Assembly: GCA_964493895.1 (NCBI GenBank)
Contig: CAZBPY010000001.1
Location: 91,233-155,232, forward strand
Direction: 5' to 3'
Length of the DNA stretch: 64,000 nt
From: an uncultured Candidatus Saccharibacteria bacterium
GTDB lineage: Bacteria; Patescibacteriota; Saccharimonadia; Saccharimonadales; JAGQNJ01
In this document: piece after piece, positions 8,023 through 28,451 of the stretch
Layout: each line of letters opens with the position of its first letter
Numbering within the stretch: position 1 is the stretch's first letter
Notes under the pieces: generated by a model
Told to the model about the DNA's origin: nothing
What the model saw: the letters and a program-made list of their open reading frames with translations, nothing else
The model's database searches: none
Program-made: the position numbers and the translations under genes

Positions 8023-8724
8023 CTAATGGCGCTCGCTGGTTGTGCTTAAAACTTTAATTAGTTGGTAAATTACTGCGTAGGTTGCGCTGATCAGGACAAA
8101 GAATGTTAGAGTGACGATATAAGTCTGGGCGTGAAAGACTGGATTAATAACTCGCTCACTGAGGTCAAAAATAATCCCAAAAGGATTTATGAGAATGTCC
8201 CAAGTATTCCATCGTAAGTAGCGACCTAAGTAAATCGCAAAGCCATTGGCTAAAAAGATAAAGCCTAGAAACCATAAAACGGCTTTGACGGACCACTGCT
8301 TGAGCAGTTGGACGTGGACAATGTAGATGCTTAGATAACCAAGGATTAAGCCGTTGATTATAAAGCTCATCATCATGGCAATGTCATAAAGTATTGATGT
8401 TTCGCCGGAACTTTGCAGGTGGATTAGATCGCTCATCAGATAAAACGCGTTGGGTAAAAATCCCAGCCATAACCCTAAAAGCAGTAGGTTTTGCCAAGCG
8501 TAAAGACGGTGCTTGGCCAAATTCACCCGAAAACCAAGCGCAAAAATCACTGGCAACCAGGCCAGAAACAGGTTCCAGATCATAAACCAGAACCGAGTAT
8601 TGCCTGCCACAATCATCCTGACCGCCAATAACAGGACACTGACACCGCTGGAACCAATCAAAGTCAGCAACAACTGAGCGGTGAACGGCGTATTCTTGAT
8701 GAGCTCTGAGCCTCTGCGAATCAC
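8023..8724 (-). CDS. DUF1361-like polytopic membrane protein
   Basis: WNLFLAWLPVIFA and LPNAFYLMSDLIHL resemble DUF1361 motifs. About 6 TM segments. Confidence 0.55.
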   Translation of the reverse strand: MIRRGSELIKNTPFTAQLLLTLIGSSGVSVLLLAVRMIVAGNTRFWFMIWNLFLAWLPVIFALGFRVNLAKHRLYAWQNLLLLGLWLGFLPNAFYLMSDLIHLQSSGETSILYDIAMMMSFIINGLILGYLSIYIVHVQLLKQWSVKAVLWFLGFIFLANGFAIYLGRYLRWNTWDILINPFGIIFDLSERVINPVFHAQTYIVTLTFFVLISATYAVIYQLIKVLSTTSERH

Positions 8725-8759
8725 AGCTATATTATACCTTGCTTTTAGCTAAATAGTCA

Positions 8760-8788
8760 TTGACAATATCATTGTGATATGTTAATAT
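8760..8788 (+). promoter_or_regulatory. Sigma-70 type promoter (TTGACA - 17 nt - TAATAT, with a TGn extended -10)
   Basis: TTGACA at 8760..8765, a 17-nt spacer, TGt TAATAT ending at 8788. It points into the frameshifted gene at 8825. Confidence 0.55.
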
Positions 8789-8824
8789 GTTTACAGTCGA
8801 AGATTAGAACGAAAAGAAAAATCA

Positions 8825-9386
8825 ATGACCGAACAACTGCCCCAAGAAGCACATACTCCAAAAACCGAAGCGCAAGTAAGCGAGCAAATAGATCGTATAG
8901 CCGGAATGCTAATGGAGAGAGTTGTAAGTAATCGTAAGTAATCCCACCCGCATTATTGAAACAACTCAGGGAGACCCCAGACATGATGTTAATCCAGACC
9001 CTGACCACGACATTATGAGTCAGGTGGCTACTGCTTTGCCAGAACGAGGTGAATTCACTTATTCTGTAAGTGACGACCCTGGAAACACGGACAAGGTAGA
9101 TTTGCGTCAAGGTAAGACACGTATTGAACGAGCTCGTTCCGATGGCGAAGGGACAATACACGCAGCAGTTGTAGGCGGCAGCAGAGAAAGAGACCAAAAC
9201 TTTCTGATATCAGGACAACAGGGAGAGCAAATACCTCTAGGCGGTAAGGACAGAATAAAAGTAGCTGCTCGAACTCTAAATAAGGCACGAAGTGATATAG
9301 GAAAAGCTCAAAGAGCCGCCGAAGAGCGAGCCGCATCGCAACAAGCTGAAAGAAAAAAGAAGGCTCTAGATACAATTCTAGCTTAG
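8825..9386 (+). pseudogene. Hypothetical charged protein gene disrupted by a perfect 10-bp tandem duplication (GTAAGTAATC x2)
   Basis: The frame from ATG 8825 stops at 8939..8941. The frame of tracked ORF 9015..9386 is open back to 8928. Deleting one copy of GTAAGTAATC (8924..8933 / 8934..8943) fuses the two frames into one 183-codon ORF. The opposite-strand ORFs 8769..9197 and 9055..9411 look non-coding. Confidence 0.6.
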
Positions 9387-9436
9387 TCAAAGACATGGAG
9401 GTTGCGAGCACACCATAGTTAGCTCATACTGTTGGC

Positions 9437-10060
9437 ATGGATAAGTTCTTGAACTCTGTGAGCAGCGCCGGTCGTAAGGTGTCGTTCCAAGTGGCTAAGG
9501 GGTTAAACCGGGCAAGCGGCGGCCGATTGCGTCCAAACATAATCACCTTCACTGGCCTTTTGGCCCACTTGCCGATTGCATGGTGCATAGCCACTGGTCG
9601 GTTCGGTCTGGCAGCCGGATTGTTAGTCTTTTTCGGCCTGTTTGATGCTCTTGACGGCGGCTTGGCCAAAGTCCAAAACCGAGCCTCGTCCGCCGGCATG
9701 TTGCTTGACGCCTCGACCGATCGCATGAAAGAGGTCATTCTCTACACCGGGGCGGCTTACTATTTCGTAGCTAGCGGCATGCCGTTTTATGCTGCCTGGG
9801 CGGTGGCCGCCTGCGGAGGCTCATTACTAGTCAGTTACGTTAAGGCCAAGGGTGAAACCGCTATCCGCGACCAAAAATTGTCGGCCAATGAAGTTAACCG
9901 ACTATTTGGCGATGGTCTGATGCGGTTTGAAGTCAGAATGTTTACTCTAATTGTTGGCTTGCTAGCCGGTTACCTGTGGATAGCGGTGGTGATAATCGCT
10001 GTTTTGTCCTGGCTAACTGCTGTCCAGCGTCTGTTGCGCTTAAGTAAAAAACTATCATGA
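9437..10060 (+). CDS. CDP-alcohol phosphatidyltransferase
   Basis: Family motif DALDGGLAKVQNRASSAGMLLDASTDR (D-G-x2-A-R/K ... G-x3-D-x3-D). Multiple TM helices. Confidence 0.85.
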   Translation: MDKFLNSVSSAGRKVSFQVAKGLNRASGGRLRPNIITFTGLLAHLPIAWCIATGRFGLAAGLLVFFGLFDALDGGLAKVQNRASSAGMLLDASTDRMKEVILYTGAAYYFVASGMPFYAAWAVAACGGSLLVSYVKAKGETAIRDQKLSANEVNRLFGDGLMRFEVRMFTLIVGLLAGYLWIAVVIIAVLSWLTAVQRLLRLSKKLS

Positions 10061-10707
10061 TCCGAGCCGACTTTCACACCCACTCAACTGCCTCGCCGGA
10101 TGGCGGAATTACAGCCGAACAATACCGGCAGTTACTAGCCGAGGACATTCTAGACTGCATTGCTATAACTGATCACAACACGATTGATTTGGCTCTGGAA
10201 CTGCACCGCGAACTGGGAAACCGGATTATAGTTGGTGAAGAGATTATGACCAATCAGGGTGAAGTCATCGGGCTGTTTTTAAAGCAGGCTGTGCCAGCTG
10301 GACTTGAGCTTAAAGATGCAATTAAGACTATTCGTAATCAGGGCGGTTTGGTCTACCTGCCCCATCCGTTTGAGACTGTTCGCAAGGGCGTTGACCAGGT
10401 AACCGCAGAAACATTGGCTGACCAAATCGATATCGTTGAAACCTACAATGGCCGAGCGGTGGCTCAAAACAAAGGTCCCCAGGCCACGGTCTGGGCTCGA
10501 CTGCATCATAAACCAGGAGCAGCCAGCAGTGATGCTCACGGAATCAAAGGGGTTGGTTCGGCATTCACAGCTATTGAAAAGATGCCGACCGCTAAAAATC
10601 TAGTCAAGCAACTTCAGACAGCAAAACTAACCATGGAACGTCCGCCGCTGCAAAGCCTGCTTTATCCAAAGTGGCATCGCTTGCGCAGTAAGTTCAAATC
10701 GCGTTAA
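10057..10707 (+). CDS. PHP-domain metal-dependent phosphoesterase
   Basis: N-terminal ADFHTHSTASPDG and later HPFE / SDAHG histidine motifs typical of PHP. ATGA overlap with the upstream gene. Confidence 0.8.
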   Translation: MIRADFHTHSTASPDGGITAEQYRQLLAEDILDCIAITDHNTIDLALELHRELGNRIIVGEEIMTNQGEVIGLFLKQAVPAGLELKDAIKTIRNQGGLVYLPHPFETVRKGVDQVTAETLADQIDIVETYNGRAVAQNKGPQATVWARLHHKPGAASSDAHGIKGVGSAFTAIEKMPTAKNLVKQLQTAKLTMERPPLQSLLYPKWHRLRSKFKSR

Positions 10708-10719
10708 AGTATAAGCAAT

Positions 10720-11274
10720 ATGGATCTAATACTGTTCGCTTTGTGGTTCTTTCTGCCAGCCGGTTTAGCCAACGCCTCCCCCGTTATAGCCAATAAAATT
10801 CCGGTTTTACGCAAGTGGAATCTGCCACTAGATTTTGGAGCCAAATTCCGCGGCAAGCGAGTTTTTGGCGACAGCAAAACCTGGCGCGGGCTGCTGGTCG
10901 GCATTATCGTAGCGACCATAACTCTAAGTCTGCAGGTATGGGCCTTCAATAACTTCGGCTGGGCCCAAGACATTGCTATCAACATCAACTACTTCATCCT
11001 GCCGGTTTATGTTTTGGGGCCGCTCTTCGCCATCGGAGCCCTCGGCGGTGACGCCATCGAAAGTTTTGTCAAACGACAGCGCGGCATCAAACCCGGCCAA
11101 TCCTGGTTCCCTTTCGACCAACTTGATTACATCATCGGTGGCCTGATCGCTAGCTTTATCGTCATCGAACTAACAATGCAAGAATACCTGGCCATCATCG
11201 TTGTGTGGTTTGCCGTACACCTCATCGCTGTCTATATCGGCTATGTCCTCGGCATCCGCCAAGCCAAGATCTAA
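10720..11274 (+). CDS. CarS-like (CDP-archaeol synthase family, DUF46) CTP:lipid cytidylyltransferase
   Basis: FFLPAGLANASPVIANK...LPLDFGAKFRGKRVFGDSKTWRGLLVGI and GALGGDAIESFVKRQRGIKPGQSWFPFDQLDYII align closely, from memory, with archaeal CarS (e.g. the A. fulgidus protein). Confidence 0.75.
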   Translation: MDLILFALWFFLPAGLANASPVIANKIPVLRKWNLPLDFGAKFRGKRVFGDSKTWRGLLVGIIVATITLSLQVWAFNNFGWAQDIAININYFILPVYVLGPLFAIGALGGDAIESFVKRQRGIKPGQSWFPFDQLDYIIGGLIASFIVIELTMQEYLAIIVVWFAVHLIAVYIGYVLGIRQAKI

Positions 11275-11678
11275 CCCTGTCGTAATACCCGGCATTTGAA
11301 CTTTGGATATTGGACGGGCGCAAAATCCTTATCAAATGTGACTAAAGTTAGATTGTGTTGCACAGCCTGGGCAGCCAACCACAAATCATGATGAGCTAAT
11401 TGGACACCCTTTCGGCGAGTTTTGGTGCCAATATCTGCAAAAACAGACGTCGTTAGCCTGTCCGGGATGAGAAGCTTAATCTTGCGAGCCTGCAAAAATC
11501 TCGTCAACAACGATCTATTCTGACCAGCTCGTGAGCCATTTTGAAATCCATACTCCAATTCGGCTACTGTGACAAGAGAAACATAAACCCTATCGGCCGA
11601 TTGCAACAAGTGGGCAACCTGCTTGTTTCCTCTAACCATTTGGCTGTAGGCAGATGTATCAAACAGATAATTCTTCAT
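11271..11678 (-). CDS. vapC: PIN-domain toxin (VapC-like)
   Basis: YLFDTSAY (first acidic residue), VTVAELEYG, and FDKDF near the C-terminus. 4-nt overlap with the upstream antitoxin gene. Confidence 0.8.
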   Translation of the reverse strand: MKNYLFDTSAYSQMVRGNKQVAHLLQSADRVYVSLVTVAELEYGFQNGSRAGQNRSLLTRFLQARKIKLLIPDRLTTSVFADIGTKTRRKGVQLAHHDLWLAAQAVQHNLTLVTFDKDFAPVQYPKFKCRVLRQG

Positions 11679-11929
11679 GGGATTTGTTGTTTGAGCTTGT
11701 CAGTTTTTTTCAAATTAGCTATAGCTTTCAGCGATCGGTTGTCAATTGTATCAGCACCGATAATCCAAGCGAAATCATCGGACTCTGCCTCCAGGTCTAC
11801 CTTGATACTTTGCCCCAAATAGTCCAGGACAACAGCGTTGAGACTGCGGCCGCTAAGCCGGGCCTGTTGTCGCAAAAATTCGTCCAACTGTTTTGGGACG
11901 GATCGAATAGTGTATTGAATATCGCTCAT
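11675..11929 (-). CDS. VapB-like antitoxin (ribbon-helix-helix type)
   Basis: Start moved to the internal ATG at 11929 (MSDIQYTIRSVPKQLDEFLRQQARLSGRSLNAVVLDYL). A TTGACA-17-TACACT promoter (11964..11936, minus strand) lies inside the longer tracked ORF, 6 nt upstream of this ATG. Confidence 0.65.
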   Translation of the reverse strand: MSDIQYTIRSVPKQLDEFLRQQARLSGRSLNAVVLDYLGQSIKVDLEAESDDFAWIIGADTIDNRSLKAIANLKKTDKLKQQIP

Positions 11930-12035
11930 ATCTGTAGTGTAGGCACTCTGCCTGCACATGTCAATTTTGTAAGAGGATGCCCTATAACCTGTCATGACCT
12001 CTAGTCTACATGGCCAAAGTTAAAAGATTCCTAAA

Positions 12036-27590: not shown

Positions 27591-28451
27591 TTAAAAGTCT
27601 AGGATTTCGCGAACGCGTTGAGAGCTGGCACTGGGGTTGTAGTCGTCAAACCATAGCACTGACCAACCCTTTTGATCGGCAGCCATTAGATTAGCCCGGG
27701 TGTCGTCAACTAGAAGTATCTCGGAGGCCGGTGCACCGGCTCGATCTTGGGCTATCTCGTAAATTTTGGCCTCTGGCTTGATAGTATGTTCGACGGAAGA
27801 ATCTATTATAACGTCGTAGGGCAGGTCTGGAATGATTTTCTTAGCCCGCATCTCTTCGATCATGCCGGGCATAATGTTGCTCATCAATCCGATACGATAA
27901 TGTTGGTGAGCCCAATCGAGAAGTTTGTGCATTTCTTTGATTGGCTTGACTGCTTTTAGATAATAGGGGGACCAGTCGATTGGTTCGGTTTCCATCTGTT
28001 TTGAGAACTTTTTGTTGAACTGATCAAGAGTGATTTCGCCGCGGCAGACTGCGTCGTTAAAGCGCCAGAAGGCAGCTTCGACTTTGTGCAGCGGCACTCC
28101 GGTTTTGGCTGACAAATCAGTGAAGGCACTGTGGAAAAAGTGCACCAGGCAGCCGTTGATATCAAAGTAAACAAAGCTGATGCCATTCTTAGAAGTTTTC
28201 TTGGTTGAAGCATTGTTGTCGCGTGATTGGCGACCGACGAGTTCATCCAGAGAAACTCCAATGACATCGGCGATGCTTTCAATTGTGAAAATCGACGGCG
28301 CCTTAATTGCTCCGCGTTCGACTTTGGCCAGAGTTGAATAAGAAAGATCAGCCTTGGCACACAGTTCCTGCTGAGTCAGTCCGGCCTTTTGTCGTGCCAT
28401 CTGTAAACGTTTGCCTAGAGCAATCTCTTGCCCATCCACCTCTGATTGCAT
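27591..28451 (-). CDS. XRE-family HTH domain fused to a HAD-superfamily hydrolase domain
   Basis: N-terminal LGKRLQMARQKAGLTQQELCAKADLSYSTLAKVERG (HTH_3-like). C-terminal FVYFDINGCLV (HAD motif I-like) and LLVDDTRANLMAA (motif IV-like). Confidence 0.75.
   Translation of the reverse strand: MQSEVDGQEIALGKRLQMARQKAGLTQQELCAKADLSYSTLAKVERGAIKAPSIFTIESIADVIGVSLDELVGRQSRDNNASTKKTSKNGISFVYFDINGCLVHFFHSAFTDLSAKTGVPLHKVEAAFWRFNDAVCRGEITLDQFNKKFSKQMETEPIDWSPYYLKAVKPIKEMHKLLDWAHQHYRIGLMSNIMPGMIEEMRAKKIIPDLPYDVIIDSSVEHTIKPEAKIYEIAQDRAGAPASEILLVDDTRANLMAADQKGWSVLWFDDYNPSASSQRVREILDF

Follow-up and report, generated by a model that had tools for sequence, protein, structure and literature searches.

In the window analysed here, a stretch of 64,000 nucleotides from an uncultured Candidatus Saccharibacteria bacterium (GCA_964493895.1, contig CAZBPY010000001.1, positions 91,233 to 155,232 of the forward strand), three adjacent genes make up the only CDP-lipid (cytidine diphosphate-lipid) head-group machinery of a 0.71-Mb genome, a finding that we regard as solid. 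Its activating enzyme belongs to the CarS family known from archaea, not to the CdsA family. The simplest reading of the three genes, to which we assign a probability of roughly 55%, is that their products would activate a scavenged lipid, transfer it to a head group and dephosphorylate the result. The host assembly consists of 709,749 bp in 7 contigs and is rated 99.66% complete. The three genes are the following.

9437–10060, plus strand: CDP-alcohol phosphatidyltransferase of the archaetidylinositol phosphate (AIP)/phosphatidylinositol phosphate (PIP) synthase type, 207 aa (gene 1)
10057–10707, plus strand: PHP-family metal-dependent phosphoesterase, candidate head-group phosphate phosphatase, 216 aa (gene 2)
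10720–11274, plus strand: CarS-family CTP:lipid-phosphate cytidylyltransferase, 184 aa, five long helices (gene 3)

The stop codon of gene 1 and the start codon of gene 2 share the bases ATGA (ATG at 10057–10059, TGA at 10058–10060), and a spacer of 12 nt separates gene 2 from gene 3; the three genes form a conserved, probably co-transcribed module. The original prediction, made from the letters and their open reading frames (ORFs), had described three adjacent genes, the first two with an ATGA overlap, and the ORF list bears this out exactly, with all three on the plus strand. The translations contain the motifs that it quoted: gene 1 has DALDGGLAK...GMLLDASTDR, and gene 3 has LPLDFGAKFRGKRVFGDSKTWRGLLVG and GGDAIESFVKRQRGIKPGQSWFPFDQLD. 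Its three protein identities hold in Pfam and NCBIfam profile searches and, for gene 3, in structure as well.

Gene 3 matches the Pfam profile PF01864 with 103.6 bits (cut-off 22) at profile positions 2–172 of 175, that is, over its full length, while its match to the CdsA family PF01148 (30.5 bits) covers positions 169–231 of 264 only. The NCBIfam CarS equivalog model NF003114 gives 126.4 bits, below its cut-off of 148. The only solved relative found by sequence is the A. pernix CarS (ApCarS, 5GUF), with a full-length match at E 2e-15. An AlphaFold2 model built on 30 relatives, with a predicted local distance difference test score (pLDDT) of 95.4, has the five-helix CarS fold as in 5GUF, and Foldseek aligns the two over 166 columns (E 1e-6; template modelling (TM) score 0.79 by target; root mean square deviation 2.8 Å); the next match, T. 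maritima CdsA (4Q2E/4Q2G), is found at E 0.2–0.4 with a TM score of 0.36–0.44 by query. Fourteen residues, P13, D38, G50, K53, T54, G57, D111, S115, K118, R119, G126, D133, Q134 and D136, show no variation in an alignment of 30 sequences from CPR bacteria (Candidate Phyla Radiation) and small-genome archaea, and all of them are identical in ApCarS when aligned with 5GUF. The partial PF01148 match and the weak fold match to 4Q2E/4Q2G rule out an assignment to CdsA. Profile searches against both families and the Foldseek comparison to 5GUF thus agree with the earlier assignment of gene 3 as CarS-type and not CdsA-type.

Gene 1 is the only match in the genome to the Pfam profile PF01066 (41.6 bits). 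Its catalytic motif is complete, D70-x2-D73-G74-x2-A77-K78 ... G87-x3-D91-x3-D95, and the motif residues are invariant in 27 orthologues, except that K78 is R in most of them. The best NCBIfam models are those for archaetidylinositol-phosphate synthase (NF040950, 89.2 bits, cut-off 180) and PIP synthase (NF045883, 78.1 bits, cut-off 170), and none of the PgsA or PssA models matches at E<=0.01. The best solved relative is the PIP synthase of Mycobacterium tuberculosis (6H53, E 3e-9). Mutagenesis of the M. tuberculosis enzyme, PgsA1, showed that A90, R94, Y133 and R137 line its inositol-phosphate pocket (PMC6506517), and in a hand mapping on the 6H53 alignment these residues correspond to A92, R96, Y134 and K138 of gene 1. 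The match at R94 is not specific, since that position is basic in all CDP-alcohol transferases. By homology, the acceptor of gene 1 would be inositol phosphate.

Gene 2 matches PF02811 with 27.2 bits (cut-off 26.4) and PF13263 (PHP_C) with 32.4 bits. Across 33 orthologues there is no change at D5, H7, H9, D15, D39, H40, E62, H103, D159 and H161, and the PHP metal ligands (H7, H9, D15, H40, E62, H103, D159 and H161) are intact. The same 33-orthologue alignment shows a conserved basic C-terminal tail, LLYPKxNRLRKK-like, which in the AlphaFold2 model (pLDDT 94.8) is a basic amphipathic helix, residues 198–214, outside the PHP domain; the model has no transmembrane segment. Foldseek finds PHP proteins at E 1e-10, the best being 3E38 and 2ANU, both uncharacterised, and RNase AM, and it also lists 2YB1, a nucleotide phosphatase-type amidohydrolase, among the close folds. 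The fold does not name the substrate, because the nearest solved folds are those uncharacterised PHP proteins and RNase AM. Gene 2 was also considered as a homologue of PgpA, PgpB/PAP2, PgpC or the Gep4 HAD phosphatase, and its PHP fold rules this out.

Absences from this genome rest on searches for named families only, each of which matched in the expected control genomes, and counts for the order rest on 41 genomes, this one included. Among the 41 is G005, flagged as unpublished, from which no sequence was taken; without it each count shifts by at most one. Gene 3 is the only PF01148 match in the genome and hence the sole CTP-transferase found; no canonical cdsA is present. Within the order, a CarS-like gene is present in 38/41 genomes and a true CdsA in one (G033). 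The other above-cut-off PF01148 matches in the order are cross-matches of the CarS-like genes themselves, and two matches below the cut-off (G009 and G024) belong to a third, divergent family. For the remaining lipid enzymes, the order has PAP2 in 23/41 genomes, PlsC-type acyltransferases in 17, DAGK_cat in 11, true GpsA in 4 and PgpA in none. In this genome, searches for PlsC-type acyltransferase, PlsY, DAGK_cat, DAGK_prokar and PLDc_2 gave no match, and these missing lipid building genes fit the salvage idea with which the three genes were first described.

CarS-like genes also occur beyond the order. In a sample of 251 Patescibacteria genomes, PF01864 matches occur in 49 and broad, strong CdsA matches in 7; the sole overlap, in G189, is a cross-match inside its CdsA gene. 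The sample therefore splits into 48 genomes with a CarS-like gene (3 of them weak, <35 bits), 7 with CdsA, none with both and about 196 with neither, CarS-like genes being about seven times as common as CdsA. Since about 196/251 genomes have neither, many relatives must manage without a CDP-lipid enzyme of these two kinds, and in one family of the window's own order the CarS-like gene was found in 0/6. As a separate observation, some Patescibacteria carry the third, divergent CTP_transf_1-like family mentioned above (G009:C1:527603-528157, G024:C11:4268-4807, and in G101, G198, G283 and G284), with ORFs of 205–242 aa that match at about profile positions 17–216 with 18–32 bits. It is distinct from CdsA and from the CarS-like proteins, and it was not found in this genome.

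The nearest named relatives of the locus are metagenome-assembled genomes of Saccharibacteria/Saccharimonadales. Among relatives' loci that extend 1350 nt or more beyond the CarS-like gene on its upstream side (2 shorter ones being set aside), the order transferase, PHP, CarS is found in 13/13. Among named public loci, 7 short ones of 56 were set aside, and the full order is present in 30 of the 49 that were counted. Six have PHP and CarS without an orthologous transferase directly upstream, and in two of those checked (L028 and L044) the opposite strand carries a CDP-alcohol transferase; one has transferase and CarS without PHP; and 12, mostly from other CPR phyla plus one archaeon, have neither transferase nor PHP. 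Because the same order recurs in 13/13 and 30/49 loci, it is far beyond chance. The CarS-like gene is thus conserved together with the transferase across relatives.

Other loci link the same functions in other ways. In three distinct predicted proteins, a CDP-alcohol transferase part with its motif and a CarS part are joined in a single chain, and both arrangements of the two parts occur. All three proteins are singleton clusters; one of them is an NCBI entry encoded on a Nomurabacteria contig of 1.08 Mb. These fusions are supportive and not decisive, since the transferase parts cover only about two-thirds of the profile. One locus (L058) has PHP, then a YegS-type lipid kinase, then CarS; a second (L064) brings together a phosphatidylserine (PS) decarboxylase, CarS and a gene of the diacylglycerol (DAG)-kinase fold; a third (L039) has a PgsA-like transferase, with PgsA as its best profile (49.7 bits), together with CarS and a phospholipase D (PLD) gene; and a fourth (L052) has CarS and PLD. 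In L050, a HAD phosphatase stands instead of PHP before a transferase that is orthologous to gene 1 (48% identity). This HAD protein is of the YqeG/Gep4 type, with 79.3 bits for the YqeG family (cut-off 89.1) and 41.1 bits for PF09419, PGP_phosphatase. Since this slot holds a different phosphatase fold, L050 provides the best argument that the slot is occupied by a phosphatase acting on the product of the transferase. In small-genome archaea, CarS lies beside a CDP-alcohol transferase in 7/21 distinct loci, none of them with PHP; this count is a lower bound, because many of the loci have flanks of only 1.5 kb.

An observation of its own concerns an ORF of 314–333 aa that immediately precedes the CarS-like gene in loci of Dojkabacteria and in a single one with the label Saccharibacteria (L043:3064-4005, L068:3055-3999 and L060:2954-3955). 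It has no Pfam or NCBIfam match, and a structure search of the Atlas returned protein-kinase-like rows (Kdo/WaaP, ABC1) with TM scores of 0.44–0.53, all below the significance bar. As a lead only, it could be an unrecognised lipid kinase.

On the preferred reading, the CarS-family membrane enzyme would react a lipid phosphate with CTP and so form a CDP-activated lipid. Its family follows from the profiles and the fold, and its substrate would most likely be phosphatidic acid taken or derived from the lipids of another cell, the product then being CDP-diacylglycerol. The AIP/PIP-synthase-like transferase, equally secure in its family, would pass the phosphatidyl group to a phosphorylated alcohol; homology points to inositol phosphate, with glycerol phosphate or another phosphorylated polyol as alternatives. 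Finally, to judge from gene context, the PHP phosphoesterase would remove the terminal phosphate and so finish the lipid, and its basic C-terminal helix probably holds the protein at the membrane. Because the genome has no recognised route to lipid tails, phosphatidic acid or the acceptor, we propose that the module re-tailors scavenged material and does not make lipid de novo.

Several observations weigh against this reading, and they fall on each of its three steps; one is common to all of them, namely that all three proteins score below their equivalog cut-offs in NCBIfam. As regards the first step, archaeal CarS is reported to have a strong preference for digeranylgeranylglyceryl phosphate (DGGGP), an unsaturated archaetidic acid, compared with phosphatidic acid, and an E. 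coli cdsA mutant was not rescued by the A. fulgidus enzyme, AfCarS (PMC9385802). The family searches in this genome found no lipid kinase, PLD or acyltransferase gene to supply phosphatidic acid, and in G033 a true CdsA and a CarS-like gene occur together. The proposal that the CarS-like enzyme may accept phosphatidic acid draws on gene context: the lipid kinase, PS decarboxylase, PLD and PgsA-like neighbours in other CPR loci speak for it, while the discrimination by archaeal CarS and the missing source of phosphatidic acid speak against it.

These preferences of the characterised enzymes also suggest that the CarS-like enzyme might keep an archaeal-type or other isoprenoid specificity, its substrate then being not bacterial phosphatidic acid but the phosphate of an ether or isoprenoid glycerolipid, or a polyprenyl phosphate. 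The juxtaposition of CarS and a CDP-alcohol transferase in small-genome archaea is in line with this, and so is a tree of 95 CarS sequences, made with a quick method, unrooted and poorly resolved (15/92 branches starred). In this tree, Saccharibacteria, Dojkabacteria, Levyibacteria and Gracilibacteria lie on one side with a Shimodaira–Hasegawa-like approximate likelihood ratio test (SH-aLRT) value of 84, and the sequences of Kerfeld-, Andersen-, Doudna- and Peregrinibacteria interleave with archaeal ones labelled Woesearchaeota, Aenigmatarchaeota and 'Methanosarcinales', the last label (locus L078) standing for a phylum of 0.7–1.6-Mb genomes with CarS in 12/31. As it has no canonical (non-DPANN) archaeal CarS outgroup, the tree gives neither direction nor age of transfer. 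Against an isoprenoid substrate, the genome has no match to PcrB/GGGPS (a UbiA-type DGGGP synthase and a glycerol-1-phosphate dehydrogenase were not searched for), and the neighbours in the other CPR loci, that is, the DAG-kinase-fold lipid kinase, PS decarboxylase, PLD and PgsA-like genes, are of bacterial type. We consider retention of the isoprenoid specificity highly improbable.

For the second step, the difficulty lies in the acceptor. Inositol-phosphate synthase (PF07994) was found in 0/41 genomes of the order, this one included, and this genome yields only a weak Rossmann cross-match and no true GpsA; the searches for these two enzymes thus disclosed no gene that would supply the acceptor alcohol. 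Moreover, V153 of gene 1 aligns, in a weakly aligned stretch, with P153 of PgsA1, and the substitution P153V lowers the inositol-phosphate affinity of the M. tuberculosis enzyme (PMC6506517). Because inositol-phosphate synthase is found in none of the 41 genomes, glycerol phosphate or another polyol is kept as a possible acceptor. If glycerol phosphate is used, the product would be phosphatidylglycerol (PG) and the PHP protein would be a phosphatidylglycerophosphate (PGP) phosphatase. Besides the missing synthase, this is favoured by the L050 HAD protein in the PHP position, with its matches to PF09419 and the YqeG family, by the PgsA-like transferase that adjoins CarS in L039, and by the lack of PgpA throughout the 41 genomes. 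It is opposed by the profiles of gene 1, which are best for enzymes that use inositol phosphate and include no PgsA match, by PIP synthase as its best solved relative and by the failure to find a true GpsA in this genome. On balance, PG as the product seems unlikely to us, although it deserves to be taken seriously.

As to the third step, the original prediction had cast the PHP protein as the missing head-group phosphatase. Translational coupling, conserved position and the HAD replacement at L050 uphold it as a candidate, but the genome also encodes, on contig 2, a PAP2 phosphatase besides BacA, so there is more than one candidate for this step. Its closest relatives of solved structure being uncharacterised proteins or RNases, the PHP protein might not act on lipid at all: its substrate could be soluble, such as a by-product or a nucleotide (for example pyrophosphate, CMP or a nucleoside bisphosphate), or it could have an unrelated housekeeping role, with PAP2 or another enzyme finishing the lipid. 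The similarity to 2YB1, the absence of a transmembrane segment from the model, and weak, mixed NCBIfam matches (CehA/McbA, RNase RNM and nucleoside bisphosphate phosphatase) are all compatible with this. Conversely, the position of PHP between transferase and CarS is kept in the 13/13 and 30/49 loci, its start overlaps the transferase stop, L058 links it to a lipid kinase and CarS, and L050 has a different phosphatase fold at the same position. PAP2, furthermore, is present in 23/41 genomes as against 38/41 for the CarS-like gene (the fetched CarS-like loci carry the cassette), and the basic amphipathic C-terminal helix is conserved outside the PHP domain. A non-lipid role for PHP is thus rather doubtful, and dephosphorylation of the transferase product remains the role that we prefer for it.

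The surroundings of the cassette include the following features.

8023–8724, minus strand: DUF1361 integral membrane protein (PF07099, 118.5 bits), divergent neighbour of the cassette
8725–9436: 712-bp spacer between the DUF1361 gene and the cassette
11271–11995, minus strand: PIN-domain toxin (134 aa) and FitA-like RHH antitoxin (105 aa)
27594–28451, minus strand: 286-aa protein with an N-terminal HTH_3 DNA-binding domain and a C-terminal HAD_2 hydrolase domain

Upstream, the minus strand carries an arginyl-tRNA synthetase gene together with the DUF1361 gene. The latter lies upstream of the cassette and on the opposite strand in 15/56 named loci, mostly adjacent and in four up to about 1 kb off, and its product could be part of the lipid module or stand apart from it. 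The 712-bp spacer is single-copy in the genome and without a match in 20 relatives, and searches against Rfam and Pfam and for tRNAs gave nothing. In L015, the closest relative, the corresponding interval is only about 46 nt long. Two ORFs within the spacer, at 9015–9386 (plus strand) and 8769–9197 (minus strand), are without a family. Scans for promoters and terminators gave results at chance level. Downstream, the PIN/RHH toxin–antitoxin pair converges on the end of the CarS-like gene and overlaps its stop by 4 nt; it is absent from this place in the closest relatives, and here a PGI-like gene follows it. Housekeeping genes make up the remainder of the window's first 30 kb (sigma-70, primase, GroEL/ES, a Mur ligase, TsaD and valyl-tRNA synthetase).

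The salvage idea itself is in print and gene 3 is already annotated publicly, so neither is new. From a metabolic reconstruction of a rhizosphere Saccharibacterium, Starr et al. 2018 (PMC6031116) proposed that Saccharibacteria are unable to make fatty acids and convert scavenged phospholipids into one another through a 'putative phosphatidate cytidylyltransferase' and CDP-diacylglycerol transferases. The passages covered contain no CarS-type label, PHP phosphatase or operon, and the supplements may name the gene. Public annotation calls such proteins 'CDP-archaeol synthase [Candidatus Saccharibacteria bacterium]'. In the literature on a CarS-type enzyme in CPR, Patescibacteria or Saccharibacteria, nothing on point was found, 'CarS' does not occur in the portion of Coleman 2019 that was covered, PMC11868695 proved unrelated, and no paper linking a PHP domain to PGP phosphatase was found. 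The phosphatase of the two-step inositol-lipid route has been reported as unidentified in mycobacteria for PIP (PMC6506517) and likewise in archaea (PMC9385802); in Bacteroides, the PIP phosphatase is the PgpA-like BT_1525 (PMC9246714).

A broader proposition is tempting, although we hold it at somewhat less than even odds: in Saccharibacteria, and in most Patescibacteria that possess any such enzyme, CDP-diacylglycerol may be made by CarS and not by CdsA, and the coupled PHP protein may represent a previously unknown class of phosphatase for lipid head-group phosphates. In the usual account, CarS and CdsA separate the lipid synthesis of archaea from that of bacteria. In the present bacterium, which shows no sign of ether-lipid synthesis as far as the search for PcrB/GGGPS goes, the sole cytidylyltransferase is of the CarS family. 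If the proposition is true, the split between CarS and CdsA does not track the divide between archaeal and bacterial lipids, and the PHP class would take a place for which the two-step inositol-lipid pathways of mycobacteria and archaea still lack an enzyme. Should the CarS-like enzyme act on phosphatidic acid, the accepted view of CarS and CdsA would need revision, and the module would show how ultra-small symbionts remodel borrowed membranes. Whatever the fate of the broader claim, the PHP gene offers, at the level of sequence and context, a concrete, testable candidate: a phosphatase of lipid head groups with a fold new to that role.

Compared with known systems, gene 3 shares with the archaeal CarS enzymes (ApCarS and AfCarS) the family by profile, the length, the five-helix fold and the 14 invariant residues. 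It differs from them in that its host is a bacterium without a PcrB/GGGPS match, in its score below the NF003114 equivalog cut-off, in a stretch between helices 2 and 3 that is about 20 residues longer than in ApCarS, and in the neighbourhood of the CPR CarS-like genes, which consists of bacterial-type phospholipid genes. With CdsA (PF01148; T. maritima 4Q2E) it has in common the proposed role, making the CDP-activated lipid donor, and the C-terminal signature of the superfamily, which accounts for profile positions 169–231. In contrast to CdsA, gene 3 is about 80 residues shorter, its profile match is partial and its fold match weak, and true CdsA is rare here, in 1/41 genomes of the order and 7/251 of the phylum sample.

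The two-step phosphatidylinositol (PI) pathway of Actinobacteria, Archaea and Bacteroides (PgsA1, AIP synthase or BT_1523, followed by a phosphatase) provides the best profile and structure matches of gene 1, although gene 1 lies below the equivalog cut-offs of the PIP and AIP synthases. Unlike that pathway, the cassette belongs to an order in which inositol-phosphate synthase was found in no genome, and its activating enzyme is CarS-type. The PI cluster of Bacteroides (PMC9246714) has a phosphatase gene coupled to the transferase, just as the cassette does, but the phosphatase of the cassette has the PHP fold and is not PgpA. The PG branch, in which PgsA is followed by PgpA, PgpB, PgpC or a Gep4/YqeG HAD protein, is set apart by the lack of a PgsA profile match for gene 1 and by a PHP fold that is not among the known PGP phosphatase folds. 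Nevertheless, it follows the same logic of transfer and then dephosphorylation, and at L050 it is precisely a YqeG/Gep4 HAD protein that replaces PHP.

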